From assembly GCA_038207085.1 (NCBI GenBank), contig JBBRAE010000012.1, positions 10,446 to 74,445 on the forward strand: a stretch of DNA of 64,000 nucleotides, in the 5' to 3' direction. The stretch is from Armatimonadota bacterium (GTDB lineage Bacteria; Armatimonadota; UBA5829; DTLH01). A program made the position numbers and the translations under genes. Position 1 is the first letter of the stretch; every line of letters starts with the position of its first letter. The notes under the pieces were generated by a model. The model was given only the letters and a program-made list of their open reading frames with translations, ran no database searches and was not told where the DNA came from. Below, piece by piece: positions 7,763 through 51,357 of the stretch.

Positions 7763-8740
7763 CTATCTTCTGACATTAAATACTACTTTGCTCCCGTCCC
7801 GCTCAAGCCTGAACGGAAGTTCCCTAAGCTCTGCAAGCGCCTTTCGGACCTTGTGCTGGTGCGTAGGCGGGCAGTAGATGAGCAAAAACCCTCCGCCTCC
7901 CGCGCCCGCGACCTTGCCTCCGATAGCCCCGGCCTTGATCGCTTTTTCGTAGAAATCATTGATCTGGTCGTTGCTGATGCCGTTTGCGAGCGATTTCTTG
8001 AGCTGCCAGCCGTCGCCAAGCACGTGCCCAAGCCGCACAATGTTCGACTTCTTGAGCGAGTCATTTAGACTTCTGGCCTGATCGCGCATGGCGATGAGCG
8101 CCTTCAAACGGTCATTGATGTTTTCTTTCTGCTCCGTAAGCACGCTTGCGGACTTGCGGGTGACGCCGGTGTAGAAGAGCATCAGGCTCTCATCCATCTG
8201 GCGGCGCTTGTCATCTTCAAGATCGACGCGCTCTGCGGTCACGCAGCCGTCGCAGCAGAAACGAAAATATTTGAGGCCGCCGTAGGCGGCGATGTATTGA
8301 TCCTGTTTGCCAATAGGCTTGCCGAGGATGTCGATTTCGATCTCACAGGCCTCGCGCGCGAGCACTTCGGCGGGCATGATTTCGCCTTTAAACGCGTGCA
8401 GCGCGTTCAGCAGCCCTACCGTGACGGTGCTCGATGACCCCAGCCCCGAGCCCTCGCTTGGAACGTCGGCCATTGTAGAGATTTCGATACCCTTGGTGAC
8501 GCCGACTTTGCGGAGACACTCGCGGACCAATTCATGCTCGATTTCGTCGATGTGATCGACCATTTCGGTCTGAGAGTAGCCGACGCGGATTTTTTCGTCG
8601 AATCTTTCTTTGACAATTACATAAATGTATTTATCAATAGCCGAAGAAACGACGCAGCCTTCTTCCTGCTGGTAAAATCCTTCGAAATCTGTGCCACCAC
8701 CAGCAAAACTAATCCTAAGCGGGGTCTGCGTGATGATCAA
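7763..8740 (-). CDS. hddA: D-glycero-alpha-D-manno-heptose-7-phosphate kinase (GHMP kinase)
   Basis: TPLRISFAGGGTD, GSGLGSS, GKQDQY, GAGGGGF; adjacent to gmhA and gmhB. Confidence 0.88.
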   Translation of the reverse strand: MIITQTPLRISFAGGGTDFEGFYQQEEGCVVSSAIDKYIYVIVKERFDEKIRVGYSQTEMVDHIDEIEHELVRECLRKVGVTKGIEISTMADVPSEGSGLGSSSTVTVGLLNALHAFKGEIMPAEVLAREACEIEIDILGKPIGKQDQYIAAYGGLKYFRFCCDGCVTAERVDLEDDKRRQMDESLMLFYTGVTRKSASVLTEQKENINDRLKALIAMRDQARSLNDSLKKSNIVRLGHVLGDGWQLKKSLANGISNDQINDFYEKAIKAGAIGGKVAGAGGGGFLLIYCPPTHQHKVRKALAELRELPFRLERDGSKVVFNVRR

Positions 8741-15250: not shown

Positions 15251-15961
15251 ATGGCGCGTTTCAAGTTTTATGGCGAAGGCATTCCAGACGTCGACCTTGA
15301 GTCGCTTTCGGGGCGACTTATTGTGCTTGAGGGGCCGGACTCGGTGGGGAGATCCACCCAGCTTGCACTTGTGCGCGACTGGCTTGAAAGCCGGGGGCAC
15401 GCGGTCTCATACACCGGGCTCAGCCGCTCGGAGCTCACCCAGCAGGGGCTCGACCAGGCAAAAAGCGGGCATACGCTCGGCAGGAAGACCATGAGCCTGT
15501 TCTACGCGACCGACTTTGCTGACAGGCTCGAAAACCAGATAATTCCCGCGCTTCGGGCAGGGTATTACGTGCTTTCGGACAGGTATTTCTACTCCGTCTG
15601 CGCGCGCGACATCGTTCGAGGCGCAGACCGGGAGTGGCTCGAAGGGGTCTACGGAATCGCGCTTGTGCCGGATTTGACGCTTTACCTGAGAGCCGAAGCC
15701 GAAGACATAGTCCCGCGCGCGCTTTATGGCAAGGGGTTCAACTACTGGGAAGCCGGGATGGACCTTGCGCTTGGAGATAACCTGTACGACAGCTTCCTTG
15801 CGTATCAGGCGAGGGTGATCGAACAGCTCGACCGGATGGCCGAGGGCTATAACTTCGTCACCATCGACGCCTCACGCGAGCCGCAGGAGATTTTTACGGA
15901 CCTGCAAAACACCATCACGCCGATCCTGCCAAAGGAACTCGGCGCAGAGTTGGAGGTATAA
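15251..15961 (+). CDS. Thymidylate-kinase-like P-loop kinase, paralog 2 (atypical P-loop)
   Basis: EGPDSVGRST, DRY, YWEAGMDL; clearly paralogous to the upstream gene; ATG 15251. Confidence 0.85.
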   Translation: MARFKFYGEGIPDVDLESLSGRLIVLEGPDSVGRSTQLALVRDWLESRGHAVSYTGLSRSELTQQGLDQAKSGHTLGRKTMSLFYATDFADRLENQIIPALRAGYYVLSDRYFYSVCARDIVRGADREWLEGVYGIALVPDLTLYLRAEAEDIVPRALYGKGFNYWEAGMDLALGDNLYDSFLAYQARVIEQLDRMAEGYNFVTIDASREPQEIFTDLQNTITPILPKELGAELEV

Positions 15962-20909: not shown

Positions 20910-21296
20910 ATGGAACCGATATTCCTCGAACTCGACGAAATTCTTGAAATCCACACCGACGAGATCAACCTGCACGGAGGTTCGCTCGGCGTTCGCGATA
21001 CCGGGTTGTTGCTTTCAGCTATTGCGGCGCCAAGAGCGACATTTGGCGGCGAATACCTGCACACCGACGTGTTTGAGATGGCTGCAGCCTATTTGTTTCA
21101 CATCGTGCAGAATCATCCGTTTGTCGACGGCAACAAGCGGACGGGTGTTGCTGCGGCACTGGCTTTTCTAATTTTGAACGACGCACGAATAAGAGCGGAC
21201 AAGGAAGCGCTGAAGGAATTGGTTTGGAAACGGGCGCAAGGGCTGGTCGAAAAGAGCCACATTTCCGAGTTCTTCAGAAATTCGCGCGGAGCCTGA
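20910..21296 (+). CDS. doc: Doc (death-on-curing, Fic family) toxin
   Basis: HPFVDGNKRT Doc motif; GVRD.GLL.SA; ATG 20910. Confidence 0.92.
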   Translation: MEPIFLELDEILEIHTDEINLHGGSLGVRDTGLLLSAIAAPRATFGGEYLHTDVFEMAAAYLFHIVQNHPFVDGNKRTGVAAALAFLILNDARIRADKEALKELVWKRAQGLVEKSHISEFFRNSRGA

Positions 21297-21331
21297 TCGG
21301 CCTGCCACCTATAATGTAGAGGTAAACACAG

Positions 21332-23029
21332 TTGCTTGAACGACTCGGGGGACTTTCCCCAAAAACCAGATGGGCTATTTTGATCGCGGCTTGCGCGGTC
21401 TTTTTCTTTGCTTGGTTTGTGCGGGTGCCGCTGACGGAGATCGACGAGACTCGTTTTACCGAGTCTAGCCGCGAGATGATCGAGTCGGGCAACTGGGTCA
21501 TCCCATACTGCAACTACGAGCCGCGCTACCGTAAACCGATCGGCTTCTACTGGGTGCAGGCGGCGGCGATGAAGACGTTTGGCAACAACGAAGTGGCCGC
21601 ACGGCTGCCATCAGCTGTGTCGGCTACGGCTCTCGTGCTTATGATGTACGGGTTCCTCCTTGGAAAGCTCGCCGGGGAGGCTGAGTCGAAAAAACGGGCT
21701 GGGGGGGCGGCGTTTTTGGCGTCGCTCGCGCTTGTGGTCTGTCCGCTTGTTGCGGTGTACGCGCGGGCGGCGGTGACTGATCACGTGCTGACGCTCTTTA
21801 TCACAGGTGCGCTTCTATCGATCTTGAACGCTGACCTCGCGACCGACAGAAAGTCGATCAGGCGATGGTATATGCTCGCGGGAATCTCAGCGGGCCTTGC
21901 GTTTCTCACCAAGGGGCCGCAGGGGCTCGTGATTCCGGGGGCGGTGTGGTTTCTTTATCACGCTAGTCGACGAAATCTAATGAACGCGGCAAAGAGCGTG
22001 CCTTGGGCGTCGACGATCGGGCTCTTTGTGCTTGTCGCAGCGCCCTGGTATGTGGCGACCTATGTCGTCGACGGCCCGGCGTTCCTCAGGTGGTTTTTTC
22101 TGAGAGAGAACGTCGCCCGGTATTCTTCTACGATGGAGGGGCACGGGTCGAACAACCCGCTTCGGGTGTTTATCACACCGCTGATGTCGATTCTGCTTAT
22201 GTTCCCGGTGAGCGCCTACGTGCTGAACGAGCTTGCAAGGCCGTTTGGCGGCGCAACTGACGCAAAAACCGACACGCTTGCCCGGATGCGGCGCTTTGCC
22301 ATCGTCTGGCTTGTGGTCGTGGTCGGAATATTCTCGATCTCCAAGACCCAGCTTCCCCAGTATGTGATGAGTATCATCGGCGCGTGCGGGGTTCTCTTTG
22401 CGATCAACCTGCTCGGGCGGTTTTCGATCGAGAACAATCGGGCGCGGTGGGGAGAGACGGCTATCATCTCGATTGTTGGCCTGGGCTACGGGTTTCTGCT
22501 CCTCAAGGTGCTCCAGCGCGGCGACGCGACGGTGAAGCTCCCCGCGATGCCATTTCCGCAGCCCATTACCACAATCGTTCTGATCTCGGGCATTGTGCTC
22601 GCGCTTGCAGTGGCAGTCGGGGCGATCGTACTTGGGTCGATGCGAAAGCAAAGCGTCGCATGGACGATCTCGGTCTGGTCGCTCTTTATGGCGGTGTTCG
22701 TCCTTGGGGTGCTCCCGATCTGGGTCAGAAGCGCATATATGCCATCGGTCAGGGTCGGCGAGTATTTGCGGACGCTCCCCAAAGGTGTGACCGTCGTCAG
22801 CAACACCAAGAAGAACTCGGAGAGCCTCTACTATTACGCAGAGCGGCGGGTGGAGTCAGCGCGGCAGAGCGACCCGAAAACGCTTGGCAAGCTGCGTGCT
22901 ATGCTTCAAAAGACGGGCAAGCTGGCTGTTGTTACCGACGATCATGGGGCCGAGGGACTGAAGAGCTTAGGGCGAGTCGCCGAGCTTCGCAGGTTTGGGA
23001 AGATTGTGGTTGTTGGTGTGAGCAAGTAG
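21332..23029 (+). CDS. ArnT-like GT-C glycosyltransferase (PMT_2)
   Basis: DETRF...REM..SGNW..P..N..PRY.KP..YW, ARLPSA, KGP, PWY, SKTQLPQY; multi-TM. Confidence 0.88.
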   Translation: MLERLGGLSPKTRWAILIAACAVFFFAWFVRVPLTEIDETRFTESSREMIESGNWVIPYCNYEPRYRKPIGFYWVQAAAMKTFGNNEVAARLPSAVSATALVLMMYGFLLGKLAGEAESKKRAGGAAFLASLALVVCPLVAVYARAAVTDHVLTLFITGALLSILNADLATDRKSIRRWYMLAGISAGLAFLTKGPQGLVIPGAVWFLYHASRRNLMNAAKSVPWASTIGLFVLVAAPWYVATYVVDGPAFLRWFFLRENVARYSSTMEGHGSNNPLRVFITPLMSILLMFPVSAYVLNELARPFGGATDAKTDTLARMRRFAIVWLVVVVGIFSISKTQLPQYVMSIIGACGVLFAINLLGRFSIENNRARWGETAIISIVGLGYGFLLLKVLQRGDATVKLPAMPFPQPITTIVLISGIVLALAVAVGAIVLGSMRKQSVAWTISVWSLFMAVFVLGVLPIWVRSAYMPSVRVGEYLRTLPKGVTVVSNTKKNSESLYYYAERRVESARQSDPKTLGKLRAMLQKTGKLAVVTDDHGAEGLKSLGRVAELRRFGKIVVVGVSK

Positions 23030-48722: not shown

Positions 48723-49103
48723 ATGGTCCGAAGTATAATTCAGACCGCCCTAGTCGCCGTATTTGCGGTGATAACAGCTGGCACGTGCCAGAATACGCTT
48801 GTAGAGGCGGCGACGCTGGGCGTCGGGGTGATGATCCCACCCCAACCCACGCAATATCCGGCGCAGCTTTCGTTTGAAAGAGACATCAAGCCGCTCGCCG
48901 ACTCGCACTGCAAGGAGTGCCACGGCGAGATTATGTCCGACTACGCAAATATCGCATCCAAGAAATACATAACCCCCGGCTCGCCTGACCAGAGCCGATA
49001 CTATACCAAACCGACCGGCAAGGCAAGCCACGGCGGCGAATCGGCATGGAGAGACAAAGCCGACACCATCAGAAATTGGATCGAGACCGGAGCGGCGGGC
49101 TAG
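48723..49103 (+). CDS. Small exported monoheme c-type cytochrome (planctomycete cytochrome c-like)
   Basis: Hydrophobic N-terminus; SFERDIKP....CKECH...PGSPDQS...IRNWIETGA. Confidence 0.75.
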   Translation: MVRSIIQTALVAVFAVITAGTCQNTLVEAATLGVGVMIPPQPTQYPAQLSFERDIKPLADSHCKECHGEIMSDYANIASKKYITPGSPDQSRYYTKPTGKASHGGESAWRDKADTIRNWIETGAAG

Positions 49104-49801
49104 GCCTTGCCCCTCCAGCACTCTTCTCTTCTTGAGCCGAGCGCGGCGATGACCAGGTCGGCGATGCCCTCGGTTCCGAAACAGTCGGCTACTGCCATCA
49201 GGTCATAGGCGAGTGGCTCGTTGATATCCTTGCCGTAGACGCTCTTGATAAAGGCTGCGCGGTCACGATCGGAGGCTCGGATGCGGTGACAAGCCTCGTC
49301 TTGGGTCAGCCCTTCGAACTCGACCAGGTTGCGGACCCTCAAATCCTCGGAGGCGATCACCCTCACGCTCAGGGCGTCAGGCAGAATGAAGTTTGCGCCG
49401 CGCCCGACAATCACCGCGTCGCCGTGCTTTGAGATCGACAAGAGCGCGCGGGCGAGGTGTCTCTTATAGAGGAACCCACCGGCGTCCGGCTGACCGGCGA
49501 ATATGCGGGCGAGTTGCTCGATGTCGGAGACGGTGTGCTCGTCGAACGCTTCAACGATCCGGCGGCTGACGTAGGCGTCGTTTGCAACGGCGTCGACCAA
49601 GTTCTTGTCCCAAAGTGTATAGCCAAGTTTTTGGGCTAGCTTCTCGGCCACGAGCTTGCCGCCGCTTGCTAGTTGACGGGAGATGACGATCGTCGGCCCG
49701 TGCGGAAGCGCCGGCTCTGTACCAGCGGACTTGGCCGCCTCACGGAGTATGGACGAACGATAGACCTGTTCGTCGACCAGTCGAACTATGTTGTTTGTCA
49801 T
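49100..49801 (-). CDS. Cytidylate-kinase-like family protein
   Basis: ISRQLASGG..VA..LA..LG....D, VIVGRGANFIL, D..R, YDL. Confidence 0.85.
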   Translation of the reverse strand: MTNNIVRLVDEQVYRSSILREAAKSAGTEPALPHGPTIVISRQLASGGKLVAEKLAQKLGYTLWDKNLVDAVANDAYVSRRIVEAFDEHTVSDIEQLARIFAGQPDAGGFLYKRHLARALLSISKHGDAVIVGRGANFILPDALSVRVIASEDLRVRNLVEFEGLTQDEACHRIRASDRDRAAFIKSVYGKDINEPLAYDLMAVADCFGTEGIADLVIAALGSRREECWRGKA

Positions 49802-49925
49802 GTTCGCTCCCCTTTCCTTTACATGTTATATGTATATACCCATTCAAGGTCAGGGGTTCATTCACGTGTGGGGGCAGTTGGCAGAAGAAAACTTACAGAG
49901 CACAATTTAAGCCAAAACCTGGCAA

Positions 49926-49942
49926 TTGGCACAGTTCTTGCA
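49926..49942 (+). promoter_or_regulatory. Sigma54 (-24/-12) promoter, copy 1
   Basis: TTGGCAC-AGTTC-TTGCA; GG-N10-GC spacing exact. Confidence 0.85.
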
Positions 49943-49952
49943 GTATATATAA

Positions 49953-50055
49953 GTGAGAAGATAATTCTCTTTTTCTCCTTCCTAAAAATGTGTTGTGAAT
50001 TAAGACCGCGGCTGGCCCGCGGACCCGGTGGTGAAAGCCAACCGGGTATTTTTTT
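49953..50055 (+). ncRNA. Putative sigma54-dependent small RNA, sibling 1 (about 103 nt)
   Basis: Predicted +1 12 nt after the GC; conserved core; CCGCGG hairpin; terminator ACCCGGT-GGT-GAAA-GCC-A-ACCGGGT followed by A and T7; no ORF. Confidence 0.75.
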
Positions 50056-50143
50056 GTCTGGGCAGTGGCTTCAAGCGTGCCCACCCTGCTCCAAATGCCT
50101 CTGTGTAAAAATATTTTTCAAATTCCTGTAAAAACTGCGAGCA

Positions 50144-50160
50144 TTGGCACGGGTTTTGCA
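50144..50160 (+). promoter_or_regulatory. Sigma54 (-24/-12) promoter, copy 2
   Basis: TTGGCAC-GGGTT-TTGCA; GG-N10-GC spacing exact. Confidence 0.85.
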
Positions 50161-50170
50161 GTATATATAA

Positions 50171-50279
50171 GTGAGAAGATAATTCTCTTTTTCTCCTTCC
50201 TAAAATGTGTTGTGAATTAACCGAAGGGACGCAAGTCCTGGAGGACCCGCAGAACTCCTAGTCCTGCGGGATATTTTTT
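50171..50279 (+). ncRNA. Putative sigma54-dependent small RNA, sibling 2 (about 109 nt)
   Basis: Same 5' core; GGGAC-GCAA-GTCCT hairpin; terminator CCCGCAG...CTGCGGG followed by ATA and T6; no ORF. Confidence 0.75.
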
Positions 50280-50289
50280 GTACCAGCTA

Positions 50290-51357
50290 TCACCCGAGAA
50301 TTCGCCGGTAGACCTGCTCGACCTCGTCGGCCATCCTCCGGGAGGTGAATCTATCACAGACGACCTCGCGCGCAAAACTGCCGAGTCGCTTTGCCAGGTC
50401 GCGGTCTGAGATCACCCGCTCGATCGCACGTGCGAGTGAGTGGTGGTCCCCCGAAGGCACGAGCAAACCGGTTTCGCCGTCGCGAATGAACTCAGGCACA
50501 CCACCAACGGCTGTGGCGACGATCGGGAGCGCGCTTGCCGCCGCTTCGAGCAACACCATCGGCAGCCCCTCCCGCAGTGACGACATGGCAAAGACATCCA
50601 GCGAAGCGAACACTCCCCAGGGAACATCGACGCGCTCGAAGATGAAAAGTCTGTCGCCAACGCCAAGCTCCTGCGCCAGCCGCCTGAGCTTCTTCAGATA
50701 TCTGGGTTTCCCATAGCCGACAAGCACTATTTTTGCTTCAGGAAGCAGCGCCGCCGCCCGAACAAGCATATCAAACCCTTTGACCGCCGCCAGCCTGCTC
50801 ACCGCGCCAACGAGGACGTCACCGGGCGCAAAGCCGTGATCTTCTCGGAAACCCGCATTGGGGAGCGGGTATTCGGGGAGGCCAATGCCGTTTTGTATGA
50901 CGTCGACTCTGCCACGGAAGCCCCGAGACTCAATATCGCACCGAATATCGTCAGACACCGTGATCGTCGCATCGGCGTCCATGCAGTAGAGCGGCTCCAA
51001 AAGCCCGTGCACCGTGCAGACGGAGCGCACCCCAAGCCGCTTCGCGACCGGAAGCGCAATCACCGAGTCGAGCTTGAGGTGAGAATGCACGAGGTCTACC
51101 CTGTGGCGCTCAATGATCGACTTGATGCGACGCGGCCCGATCAGCTTGGAAGACAACCCCTTCATAGGAAGCGTCTCGACGGGCACCCCCCTGTCGATCG
51201 CACACCGCTCAACCCACGATCCCGACCGGCACGCGAGCACGGTGCGGTAACCGCGGGCCACAAACTCATCGATCAGACCCAGGACAACCCGCTCGGCCCC
51301 TCCGATGGAGCGACCCGACATGACATGAAGAATGGTTGGCGTGTGGCAAGAATGCAT
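50290..51357 (-). CDS. GT4 (GT-B) glycosyltransferase
   Basis: GGAER, HSH, TVHG, NGI, RL...KG, EGLPMVLLEA, VGGVPE. Confidence 0.92.
   Translation of the reverse strand: MHSCHTPTILHVMSGRSIGGAERVVLGLIDEFVARGYRTVLACRSGSWVERCAIDRGVPVETLPMKGLSSKLIGPRRIKSIIERHRVDLVHSHLKLDSVIALPVAKRLGVRSVCTVHGLLEPLYCMDADATITVSDDIRCDIESRGFRGRVDVIQNGIGLPEYPLPNAGFREDHGFAPGDVLVGAVSRLAAVKGFDMLVRAAALLPEAKIVLVGYGKPRYLKKLRRLAQELGVGDRLFIFERVDVPWGVFASLDVFAMSSLREGLPMVLLEAAASALPIVATAVGGVPEFIRDGETGLLVPSGDHHSLARAIERVISDRDLAKRLGSFAREVVCDRFTSRRMADEVEQVYRRILG

Follow-up and report, generated by a model that had tools for sequence, protein, structure and literature searches.

What is encoded between positions 49802 and 50289 of a 64-kb stretch of an Armatimonadota genome (64,000 nucleotides (nt) of contig JBBRAE010000012.1, referred to here as the window), where one sequence occurs twice in succession in an intergenic gap? 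The presented analysis indicates that the repeated sequence forms the 5' halves of two small RNA (sRNA) genes, which belong to a conserved, apparently undescribed RNA family of one Armatimonadota class. With moderate confidence, each of the two units is regarded here as an independent gene for a trans-acting sibling sRNA that carries a seed against ribosome-binding sites (RBS) and stands under sigma-54 control, its mechanism being inferred. This reading is based on gene anatomy, conservation, covariation, promoter association and the presence of rpoN, activator genes and hfq in the genome. Transcription and its start and end points, the use of Hfq, pairing with the RBS, the regulatory direction and the nature of both signal and activator are predictions of the model.

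Anatomy of the tandem units

The repeat scan aligned positions 49925-49987 with 50143-50205 (63 nt, 95% identity, spacing 218) and 49985-50003 with 50202-50220 (19 nt, 100% identity), the latter at a spacing of 217, which equals one A fewer in an A-run. Both copies begin with TTGGCAC-N5-TTGCA, and the three substitutions between them all fall inside N5 (AGTTC versus GGGTT). The repeat search and the direct reading of the letters agree here with an earlier description of this DNA made without database searches (the sequence-only reading), which had reported a repeat with a period of 218, substitutions restricted to N5 and a difference of one A. Both units lie on the plus strand, at 49927-50055 (copy 1) and 50145-50279 (copy 2), and their near-identical 5' halves consist of a TGGCAC-N5-TTGCA promoter followed by GUGAGAAGAUAAUUCUCUUUUUCUCCUUCCUAAAA(A)UGUGUUGUGAAUUAA. 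Beyond positions 50003 and 50220 the two copies are unrelated in sequence, and the regions upstream of them are also mutually unrelated. The features of both units are given below, where R1 is a covariance model of the RNA part only, with the promoter left out, and A1 is an alignment of 27 long-form RNAs that extends from the predicted +1 to the U-run.

49927-49942, plus strand: predicted sigma-54 promoter of copy 1, TGGCAC (49927-49932)-AGTTC-TTGCA (49938-49942), -24/-12 elements; homologues have the same element at the same distance
49953-50055, plus strand: predicted sRNA, copy 1, about 103 nt (R1 58.4 bits, E 2.7e-11; fold)
49965-49983, plus strand: pyrimidine-rich core UUCUCUUUUUCUCCUUCCU of copy 1, complement of AGGAAGGAGAAAAAGAGAA; near-invariant columns in A1
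49990-49997, plus strand: invariant GUGUUGUG motif of copy 1, present in long-form members only
50006-50022, plus strand: middle GC hairpin of copy 1, CCGCGG-CUGGC-CCGCGG; homologous helix changed on both sides in 5 of 5 pairs
50024-50055, plus strand: predicted intrinsic terminator of copy 1, CCCGGUGG-UGAAAG-CCAACCGGG, UA, U7 (fold; family covariation in 8 of 11 pairs)
50145-50160, plus strand: predicted sigma-54 promoter of copy 2, TGGCAC (50145-50150)-GGGTT-TTGCA (50156-50160), one of 23 strict matches in the genome
50171-50279, plus strand: predicted sRNA, copy 2, about 109 nt (R1 75.7 bits, E 2.9e-15; fold)
50183-50201, plus strand: pyrimidine-rich core of copy 2, identical to that of copy 1
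50207-50214, plus strand: GUGUUGUG motif of copy 2 (sequence reading, A1)
50226-50239, plus strand: middle hairpin of copy 2, GGGAC-GCAA-GUCCU (fold, covariation)
50246-50279, plus strand: predicted intrinsic terminator of copy 2, CCCGCAG...CUGCGGG, AUA, U6 (fold, covariation)
50280-50283, plus strand: GTAC directly 3' of the U-run of copy 2, a family-associated motif that copy 1 does not have

The +1 sites at 49953 and 50171 are predicted positions, counted from the C of the -12 GC at 49941 and 50159, and the putative 3' ends of both sRNAs are set by the U-runs. RNAfold gave -32.9 kcal/mol (z -2.8) for copy 1 and -31.9 kcal/mol (z -2.5) for copy 2, the z values being relative to shuffles. In spite of their diverged sequence, the 3' halves fold into the same architecture, a short GC hairpin and then a terminator hairpin with a U-run, so that this part of the earlier description is upheld by folding as well as by the covariation presented below. 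A simple terminator scan of the region missed both terminators and reported as its sole site the copy-1 GC hairpin on the minus strand; the two terminators were accepted despite this result because RNAfold and covariation show them. The gap 49802-50289 contains only mechanical open reading frames (ORFs) of 51-152 amino acids, none of which matched Pfam. The plus-strand ORFs across the gap, being without a Pfam match, were rejected as genes.

A conserved family with covarying hairpins

BLASTN with the 79-nt repeat as query yielded matches in 15 of 41 related genomes and, in the window's own genome, a third copy on a different contig. With R1, five copies were found in the window's genome, namely the two window copies, C26:4414-4521, C5:54614-54723 and C31:18619-18701, and 32 of 53 genomes of the same class were positive, with one to five copies each. 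Divided among the families of the class, positive genomes amounted to 5/5 in f1, to which the window's genome is added, 19/28 in f2, 2/2 in f3, 1/6 in f4 and 4/11 in f5. Of 151 genomes sampled evenly from the phylum and searched with stricter filters and the long-form model, 8 were positive, all from four families of this class, and short forms may occur elsewhere. An exact-pattern scan (promoter, gap of 14-40, TTCTCCTTCC) over one genome per species in 185,579 species returned 34 loci, 28 of which read as the same build (17 titled Armatimonadota or Armatimonadetes and 11 further metagenome-assembled genomes (MAGs)). The remaining six, from Ottowia, two Lachnospiraceae, Longimicrobiaceae, a deltaproteobacterial MAG and Prolixibacteraceae, are probably chance matches, the rest of the build being absent by eye.

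Members of the family occur in two forms. The long form, of about 100-120 nt, is composed of a purine-rich 5' end, CAUC, UUUUUCUCCUUCC, UAAA, GUGUUGUGGC, a variable hairpin and the terminator, while in the short form, of about 60-70 nt, the terminator stands directly 3' of the core. The window copies are of the long form, with a lineage-specific 5' variant in which GAUAAUUCUC replaces AAAACAUC. Together with the near-identical third copy (C26) and two more diverged ones (C5, C31) they make up a sibling set with the same seed. The further siblings that the sequence-only reading had proposed to seek are thus present, both in this genome and in relatives, and they provide the material for covariation.

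Covariation was assessed on 69 hits (56 distinct sequences) aligned to R1, a fit that biases the alignment towards the structure: 88.4% of cells were paired, compared with 71.5% in shuffles and 34-54% in slid controls of the same alignment. Cells with a change on both sides numbered 132 against 44.8 in shuffles, and none of 500 shuffles of the 56 distinct sequences reached 132. Compensatory changes were observed in all five pairs of the middle hairpin and in 8 of the 11 terminator pairs. Independently of the R1 fit, RNAalifold on a plain MAFFT alignment revealed compensation in 4 of 8 terminator pairs. A rho-independent terminator is therefore indicated by a hairpin with a U-run in both copies and by compensatory changes across the family.

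The same helices bear on the strand. G-U pairs are frequent in both hairpins and would not pair on the other strand; the plus strand is favoured because many G-U pairs fit this strand only. The possibility that the opposite strand carries the gene of a tiny protein is suggested by the antisense of the core, AGGAAGGAGAAAAAGAUG, which represents a perfect RBS with a start codon, and by the occurrence of ATG 5-7 nt after GGAG in 39 of 52 unique sigma-54-linked copies. This ATG is nevertheless absent from the other 13 of 52, the window copies included. The frames range from 3 to 53 codons, the longest being cut by the context read, and share no conserved peptide; where they traverse the promoter, three reading frames occur (CKNRAN, ARIVP, LQDSCQ), and no minus-strand terminator follows the frame. 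As U-runs and hairpin covariation, like the G-U pairs, fit the plus strand, a minus-strand protein gene is considered highly improbable.

The earlier description also placed a small hairpin at the 5' end. It is foldable in both window copies, but the pairing of the purine-rich 5' end with UUUUUCUC gained no support from covariation across the family: 70.4% of cells were paired, exactly as in shuffles (70.4%), and 78.8% when slid by 3. It was therefore rejected as a conserved structure, and the 5' pairing is, to judge from the sequences, one of purines facing pyrimidines with no conserved helix. Predicted over 42 long-form RNAs, the mean probability of being unpaired was 0.79 for CUUCCU, 0.47 for UUUUUCUC and 0.46 for GUGUUGUGG, compared with 0.07-0.09 in the helices of the middle hairpin and 0.16 in those of the terminator.

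Whether the repeat could be no more than a non-functional sequence, such as a mobile element, a repetitive extragenic palindrome (REP)- or miniature inverted-repeat transposable element (MITE)-like repeat, or an assembly duplication in a MAG, has to be considered in view of the C26 copy. This copy corresponds to window positions 50028-50279 with five substitutions and one indel, and its breakpoints are located inside the copy-1 terminator and just 3' of the copy-2 U-run. The pattern indicates a recent segmental duplication, or possibly strain variation or mixing in the assembly. Against a repeat without function, however, terminal inverted repeats are absent, gene neighbourhoods are retained between genera of the family, a conserved promoter and seed are combined with covarying hairpins throughout the class, and tandem arrays occur in many independent assemblies. 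Arrays of two or three units were found in at least 11 other loci (L005, L006, L008, L025, L030/L092, L035, L041, L049, L057, L079 and L097, among others); since they recur elsewhere, the tandem pair of the window is no assembly oddity. This explanation is accordingly regarded as hardly tenable. The related claim that selection, rather than a recent duplication or artefact, accounts for the conserved architecture stands in part: it agrees with class-wide conservation, covariation and recurring tandems, but the 5' halves of the window copies are identical from the promoter to +51, even at positions that vary freely among orthologues (-11 to -1; the GAUAAUUCUC variant). Identical 5' halves joined to unrelated 3' halves would fit partial duplication or gene conversion among siblings better than selection alone.

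Sigma-54 promoters, paralogues and neighbouring genes

Because R1 was built without the promoter, the presence of a promoter at new hits is a fair test of its association with the RNA. The element TGGCA[CT]-N5-T[TC]GC was found at the expected distance in 15 of the 25 R1 hits outside the seed, and four further non-seed hits had it with a single mismatch by eye (TGGTAC or T(A/G)TGCA). The N5 spacer is itself conserved (GATTC), with G first in 47/52 and T fourth in 52/52, which we take to agree with the extended sigma-54 consensus. By sequence, the units have a promoter of their own, as trans-encoded sRNAs do, in the form of a consensus element at a fixed distance in a genome with rpoN. Three copies (the two of the window and C26) have canonical promoters, which resembles the multicopy situation of Qrr; the C5 promoter is defective and C31 has none. 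In the C5 copy (L070:1501-1610, plus strand; C5:54614-54723) the element reads GGCAT...GCA, in which the distance from GG to GC is too short by one base; the copy follows the Rce1-like gene that also precedes sigma-54-driven copies in relatives. The C31 copy (L072:1501-1583, minus strand; C31:18619-18701) is situated about 4.3 kb from an operon of a hybrid kinase, an activator and rpoN2.

The machinery required for such promoters, which the sequence-only reading had advised to look for together with hfq, is encoded in the genome. Two rpoN genes (129.5 and 119.2 bits), hfq (97.1 bits) and three NtrC-type activators were found, two of the activators being REC-AAA+-HTH_8 proteins and one a REC-AAA+ protein without a DNA-binding domain; one of the three belongs to the C31 operon. 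The scores of all three activators lie below the NCBIfam equivalog cut-offs, and no activator gene stands beside the RNA at the loci read. Different activators may drive each copy, as had been proposed, but the genome has only these three sigma-54 activators, one of them lacking a DNA-binding domain.

Genome-wide, 23 strict sigma-54 matches were obtained, and the genes downstream of them include RNA genes, five PEP-CTERM proteins and flagellar genes. The PEP-CTERM proteins (L138-L142; four above the Pfam cut-off) stand behind TGGCAC-N2-TTCTTGCA, the same type as the sRNA promoters, and the flagellar rod and FliO genes (L143-L144) behind TGGCACGG(T/G)AATTGCT promoters, three of which are in the C6 flagellar cluster. 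This distribution hints, and does no more than hint, that the RNAs may belong to the PEP-CTERM branch of the sigma-54 regulon. Two promoter sequence types and two rpoN paralogues might also reflect promoter partitioning. Directly upstream of the -24 element, the weak motif CC[TCA][GC]-N6-8-T[GAT][CA][CGT] was detected in 19 of 52 promoters, compared with 0-5 in control windows. It precedes TGGCAC by about 3-26 nt, often has the form CCTGGTAAAAATGCCGGG and is partly dyad-symmetric. In the window it occurs at 50126-50141 (CCTGTAAAAACTGCGA), before copy 2; the sequence upstream of copy 1 is different. This motif may be a regulator site, in an unusual position so near to the -24 element. When the upstream region was footprinted by comparison with the single syntenic relative, the promoter alone emerged.

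The genome also contains further sRNA-like genes with a CU-rich core (e.g. AACAUCUUUUUCUCCUUUCACCUCCUUUCCU) and a terminator, which stand behind other promoter types:

L111:1472-1587, plus strand (= C30:30230-30345): CU-core RNA-like gene
C20, about 21254-21350, minus strand: CU-core RNA-like gene
C9, about 82822-82925, plus strand: CU-core RNA-like gene
C22, about 7790-7990, minus strand: CU-core RNA-like genes, tandem pair
C28, about 15560-15714, minus strand: CU-core RNA-like gene

Their promoters are GGGAAC-N17-CGTA(G)TA and GGAAC-N17-TCTT, both similar to those of extracytoplasmic function (ECF) sigma factors, TTGACG-N17-TAAAAT (sigma-70-like) and, for C28, one of sigma-54 type. Relatives (L116, L124, L126, L127, L130) possess orthologues of C30 type, preceded by the same ECF-like promoter.

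The tetranucleotide GTAC is found 3' of the U-run in 26 of 52 unique sigma-54-linked members and in several ECF-like paralogues. Across the genome it follows 34 of 14,674 T-runs. The 15 most frequent 4-mers (each present two or more times) 3' of 155 simple sites of a hairpin with a T-run do not include GTAC.

The genes that flank the RNAs in the window are the following:

49100-49801, minus strand: cytidylate-kinase-like gene, divergent neighbour (Pfam PF13189, 3.1e-35)
50290-51357, minus strand: gene of a glycosyltransferase of family 4 (GT4), convergent neighbour (Pfam PF00534, 9.4e-37)

Synteny is visible with the same-family relative L012, which has the cytidylate-kinase-like neighbour as well (PF13189, 3.4e-37), and among L008, L016 and L070 (the C5 copy of the window's genome), which share the Rce1-like neighbour. 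Over the loci as a whole the neighbours vary (an Rce1-like protease, the cytidylate-kinase-like gene, a peptidase C25 with ParA and FlgM, and others). At four loci of two genera of a sister family (L004, L005, L073, L076) the sRNA gene or genes lie between a gene with a PPDK_N domain and the phosphofructokinase gene pfk, with the RNA directly upstream of pfk in the same orientation and 70-130 nt away. These four loci speak for a cis-acting leader, in which the sigma-54 promoter would drive the downstream gene and the terminator would serve as a regulated attenuator. A constant, co-oriented position before one gene family is found only there; in the window the next gene is convergent, and copy 2 is no leader of it because the GT4 gene is convergent. 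The tandem units, all complete with promoter and strong terminator, and the varying neighbours likewise argue against a leader, as do the absence of a conserved alternative anti-terminator pairing and the pfk starts, which show a generic Shine-Dalgarno (SD) sequence only. A leader or attenuator function is thus very unlikely as a general explanation.

A cyclic di-GMP-I riboswitch (L044:614-704, plus strand; 74.7 bits, E 4.3e-13) was observed about 190 nt from an opposite-strand family member in an uncultured Armatimonadetes genome.

The core, its candidate targets and related systems

The most conserved part of the RNA is the 18-nt core ACAUCUUUUUCUCCUUCC, the columns of which are invariant or at least 90% conserved in A1, while everything 3' of it varies. 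Its complement, GGAAGGAGAAAAAGAUGU, consists of an SD sequence, a 6-nt spacer and AUG, and the core is the exact antisense of this arrangement. In a crude gene set of this genome (950 long ORFs), the hexamers most often found upstream are AAGGAG, GGAGGA and AGGAGG. The properties of a conserved and accessible seed are therefore present in the core, which is at least 90% conserved and predicted to be open at CUUCCU, with only 0.47 at UUUUUCUC. Two conserved 3'-terminal motifs of 16S ribosomal RNA, sought in order to compare the core with this RNA's 3' end, gave no match in the assembly.

From these elements a mechanism can be proposed. The sigma-54 RNA polymerase would bind the TGGCAC-N5-TTGCA element, and an NtrC-type response-regulator activator, phosphorylated on some signal, would open the promoter. 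Transcription would begin about 11 nt downstream of the -12 GC and end at the unit's own intrinsic terminator, giving an RNA of about 100-110 nt. Such an RNA would offer a single-stranded pyrimidine-rich seed (ACAUCUUUUUCUCCUUCC in the family consensus, UUCUCUUUUUCUCCUUCCU in the window), which would pair with translation-initiation regions of target mRNAs and block ribosome loading. Hfq on the U-tail would probably assist the pairing, an assistance proposed because of the U-tail and the hfq gene in the genome.

Several observations weigh against this reading. The dependence of the family on sigma-54 is not strict: 6 of the 25 non-seed hits have no sigma-54 promoter, among them two copies of the window's own genome (C5, C31), and CU-rich relatives stand behind ECF-like and sigma-70-like promoters. 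The earlier claim of sigma-54 control, supported as it is by the promoters and rpoN, must be restricted to this extent. Within the seed, UUUUUCUC is able to pair with the purines of the 5' end, which may mask part of the seed. The proposed mechanism also leaves the GUGUUGUG motif without an explanation, although among the 27 sequences of A1 this motif is invariant at seven of eight positions and at least 90% conserved at the remaining one. The four pfk loci, moreover, may leave room for a local cis effect there.

The search for targets adds to these difficulties. An RNAduplex scan of the window's genome was unspecific, with 7721 sites at or below -17 kcal/mol, and a scan for contiguous pairing in the same genome was equally unspecific, yielding many generic purine-rich sites and singling out no target. 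The best non-self sites lay in other sRNA-like genes or unremarkable ORFs. The core-complement pattern gave about 150 matches in 36 genomes of the order against about 17 for a reversed control; the long core complements that were examined (7 of 7 loci in relatives, and those of the own genome) corresponded to the opposite strand of further sRNA-like genes and not to mRNA starts. Feedback pairing was weak at the starts scored, those of one kinase gene and the three activators (-10.7 to -16.0 kcal/mol), and the pfk start regions beside the RNA in the sister genera contained generic SD sequences only. As the target searches remained unspecific, the repression of translation by pairing with RBS, which the earlier description had claimed, keeps the status of a prediction. 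The core claim of the same description, sibling sRNA genes with a sigma-54 promoter, an anti-SD core and their own terminators, is strengthened by the family in 32 of 53 genomes of the class and by the covariation.

A core that is antisense to an idealised SD-spacer-AUG, and not to any one identifiable mRNA, would also suit a decoy or sponge, which would mimic the 16S 3' end and titrate a protein, an RNA or SD-led mRNAs in bulk, as a global throttle. In line with this are the at least 11 RNA-like genes with such a core behind different promoter types in the genome, and the extreme conservation over 18 nt, which exceeds the usual need of a short seed. No partner of such a decoy is known, however. 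GGA is the CsrA-binding motif, and the core contains no GGA motifs, hence it is no sponge of CsrA type. The single-stranded seed, the U-tailed terminator and hfq are, in addition, the anatomy of ordinary base-pairing sRNAs. A decoy function is for these reasons judged clearly unlikely. A broader scheme, which is speculative and on balance also unlikely, would view the RNAs as a seed-sharing superfamily of this class, in which one anti-start-site module is placed under sigma-54, ECF-type and sigma-70-type promoters, with no fewer than 11 such genes in a genome. Different signals would then converge on shared start regions or on bulk SD-led translation, with the RNAs as soluble competitors for the 16S anti-SD and as a global throttle, with a possible link to the PEP-CTERM surface proteins and flagella of the sigma-54 regulon.

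Independent trans-acting sibling sRNA genes, the reading preferred here, have counterparts in several known systems. Qrr1-5 of Vibrio are quorum-regulatory sRNAs that depend on sigma-54, LuxO and Hfq and are driven by an NtrC-type response regulator. As in the present case, a genome carries several siblings, every one with a sigma-54 promoter and a terminator of its own, and they share one conserved single-stranded seed. There is, on the other hand, no similarity in sequence or structure (Rfam, E up to 10), and the phylum differs; here the seed is a plain pyrimidine stretch antisense to SD-AUG, direct tandems are frequent, some paralogues have other promoters and no activator gene lies beside the loci read. 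The alphaproteobacterial anti-SD sRNAs AbcR1/2, NfeR1 and Rhodobacter CcsR1-4 ('cuckoo') direct CU-rich anti-SD seeds against many mRNA starts, and CcsR1-4 are arranged in tandem; the type of seed and the sibling or tandem genes are as in the window. Their motifs, of the CCUCCUCCC type, are exposed in hairpin loops, and their promoters are not known to be of sigma-54 type (those of CcsR are of RpoHI/HII), whereas in the RNAs described here the motif is linear, about 18 nt long and close to the 5' end, the promoters are of sigma-54 type and there is no Rfam match. Campylobacter CJnc230 is RpoN-dependent, Myxococcus Pxr and Pseudomonas NrsZ depend on sigma-54, and the NrsZ repeats are processed from one transcript. 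Pxr, NrsZ, GlmY/GlmZ and CJnc230 are alike to the present RNAs in being sigma-54 sRNAs, but there is no Rfam match to them and none of them is known to have this anti-RBS core; the single processed transcript of NrsZ also contrasts with a promoter and a terminator for each unit.

Vibrio fischeri Qrr1 and its two activators are the topic of PMC10162802, NfeR1 as an sRNA with an anti-SD motif that of PMC10746234 and 10.1101/2025.11.14.688489, the enterobacterial sigma-54 sRNAs GlmY/GlmZ that of PMC3045617, and RpoN-dependent flagellar genes of Campylobacter, tuned by two sRNAs, that of PMC11187230. Neisseria NmsRs (NgncR_162/163), presented in PMC5362039 as tandem siblings with anti-SD pairing at metabolic mRNA starts, share the tandem anti-SD arrangement with the units described here, from which they differ in promoter type, sequence and phylum, with no homology detected. 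The closest systems in kind are thus the sigma-54 siblings of Qrr type and the anti-SD sRNAs of Alphaproteobacteria and Neisseria, and the family is a member of none of them.

As the earlier description had supposed, no known family was matched. Anywhere in the 64-kb window, no Rfam family (tRNA, riboswitch or other; Qrr, Pxr, NrsZ, GlmY/Z, RsaE, AbcR and cuckoo included) reached its gathering score. The sole match of the 651-nt region at E up to 10 was a terminator-like one to AaHKsRNA41 (13.1 bits against a gathering score of 97, minus strand), and at E up to 0.1 nothing was obtained at the sRNA sites of 14 homologous loci. Among the titles and abstract openings surveyed, none describes such an RNA, or any regulatory RNA, for Armatimonadota, and the main text of a preprint on prokaryotic noncoding space (10.64898/2026.10.21.760802) contains no mention of the terms sought.

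Summarizing, Armatimonadota are known almost only from metagenomes, and the family offers a concrete, testable entry to their regulation, with a promoter class, a seed and a predicted start, end and size. Its covariance model can be used to annotate these genes in MAGs. The family would extend the logic of enhancer-dependent sibling sRNAs of Qrr type to a distant lineage and, together with the ECF-like and sigma-70-like paralogues, would represent a natural case of one seed under several sigma factors. The interest would be greater still if the wider CU-core superfamily acts on a common set of targets.

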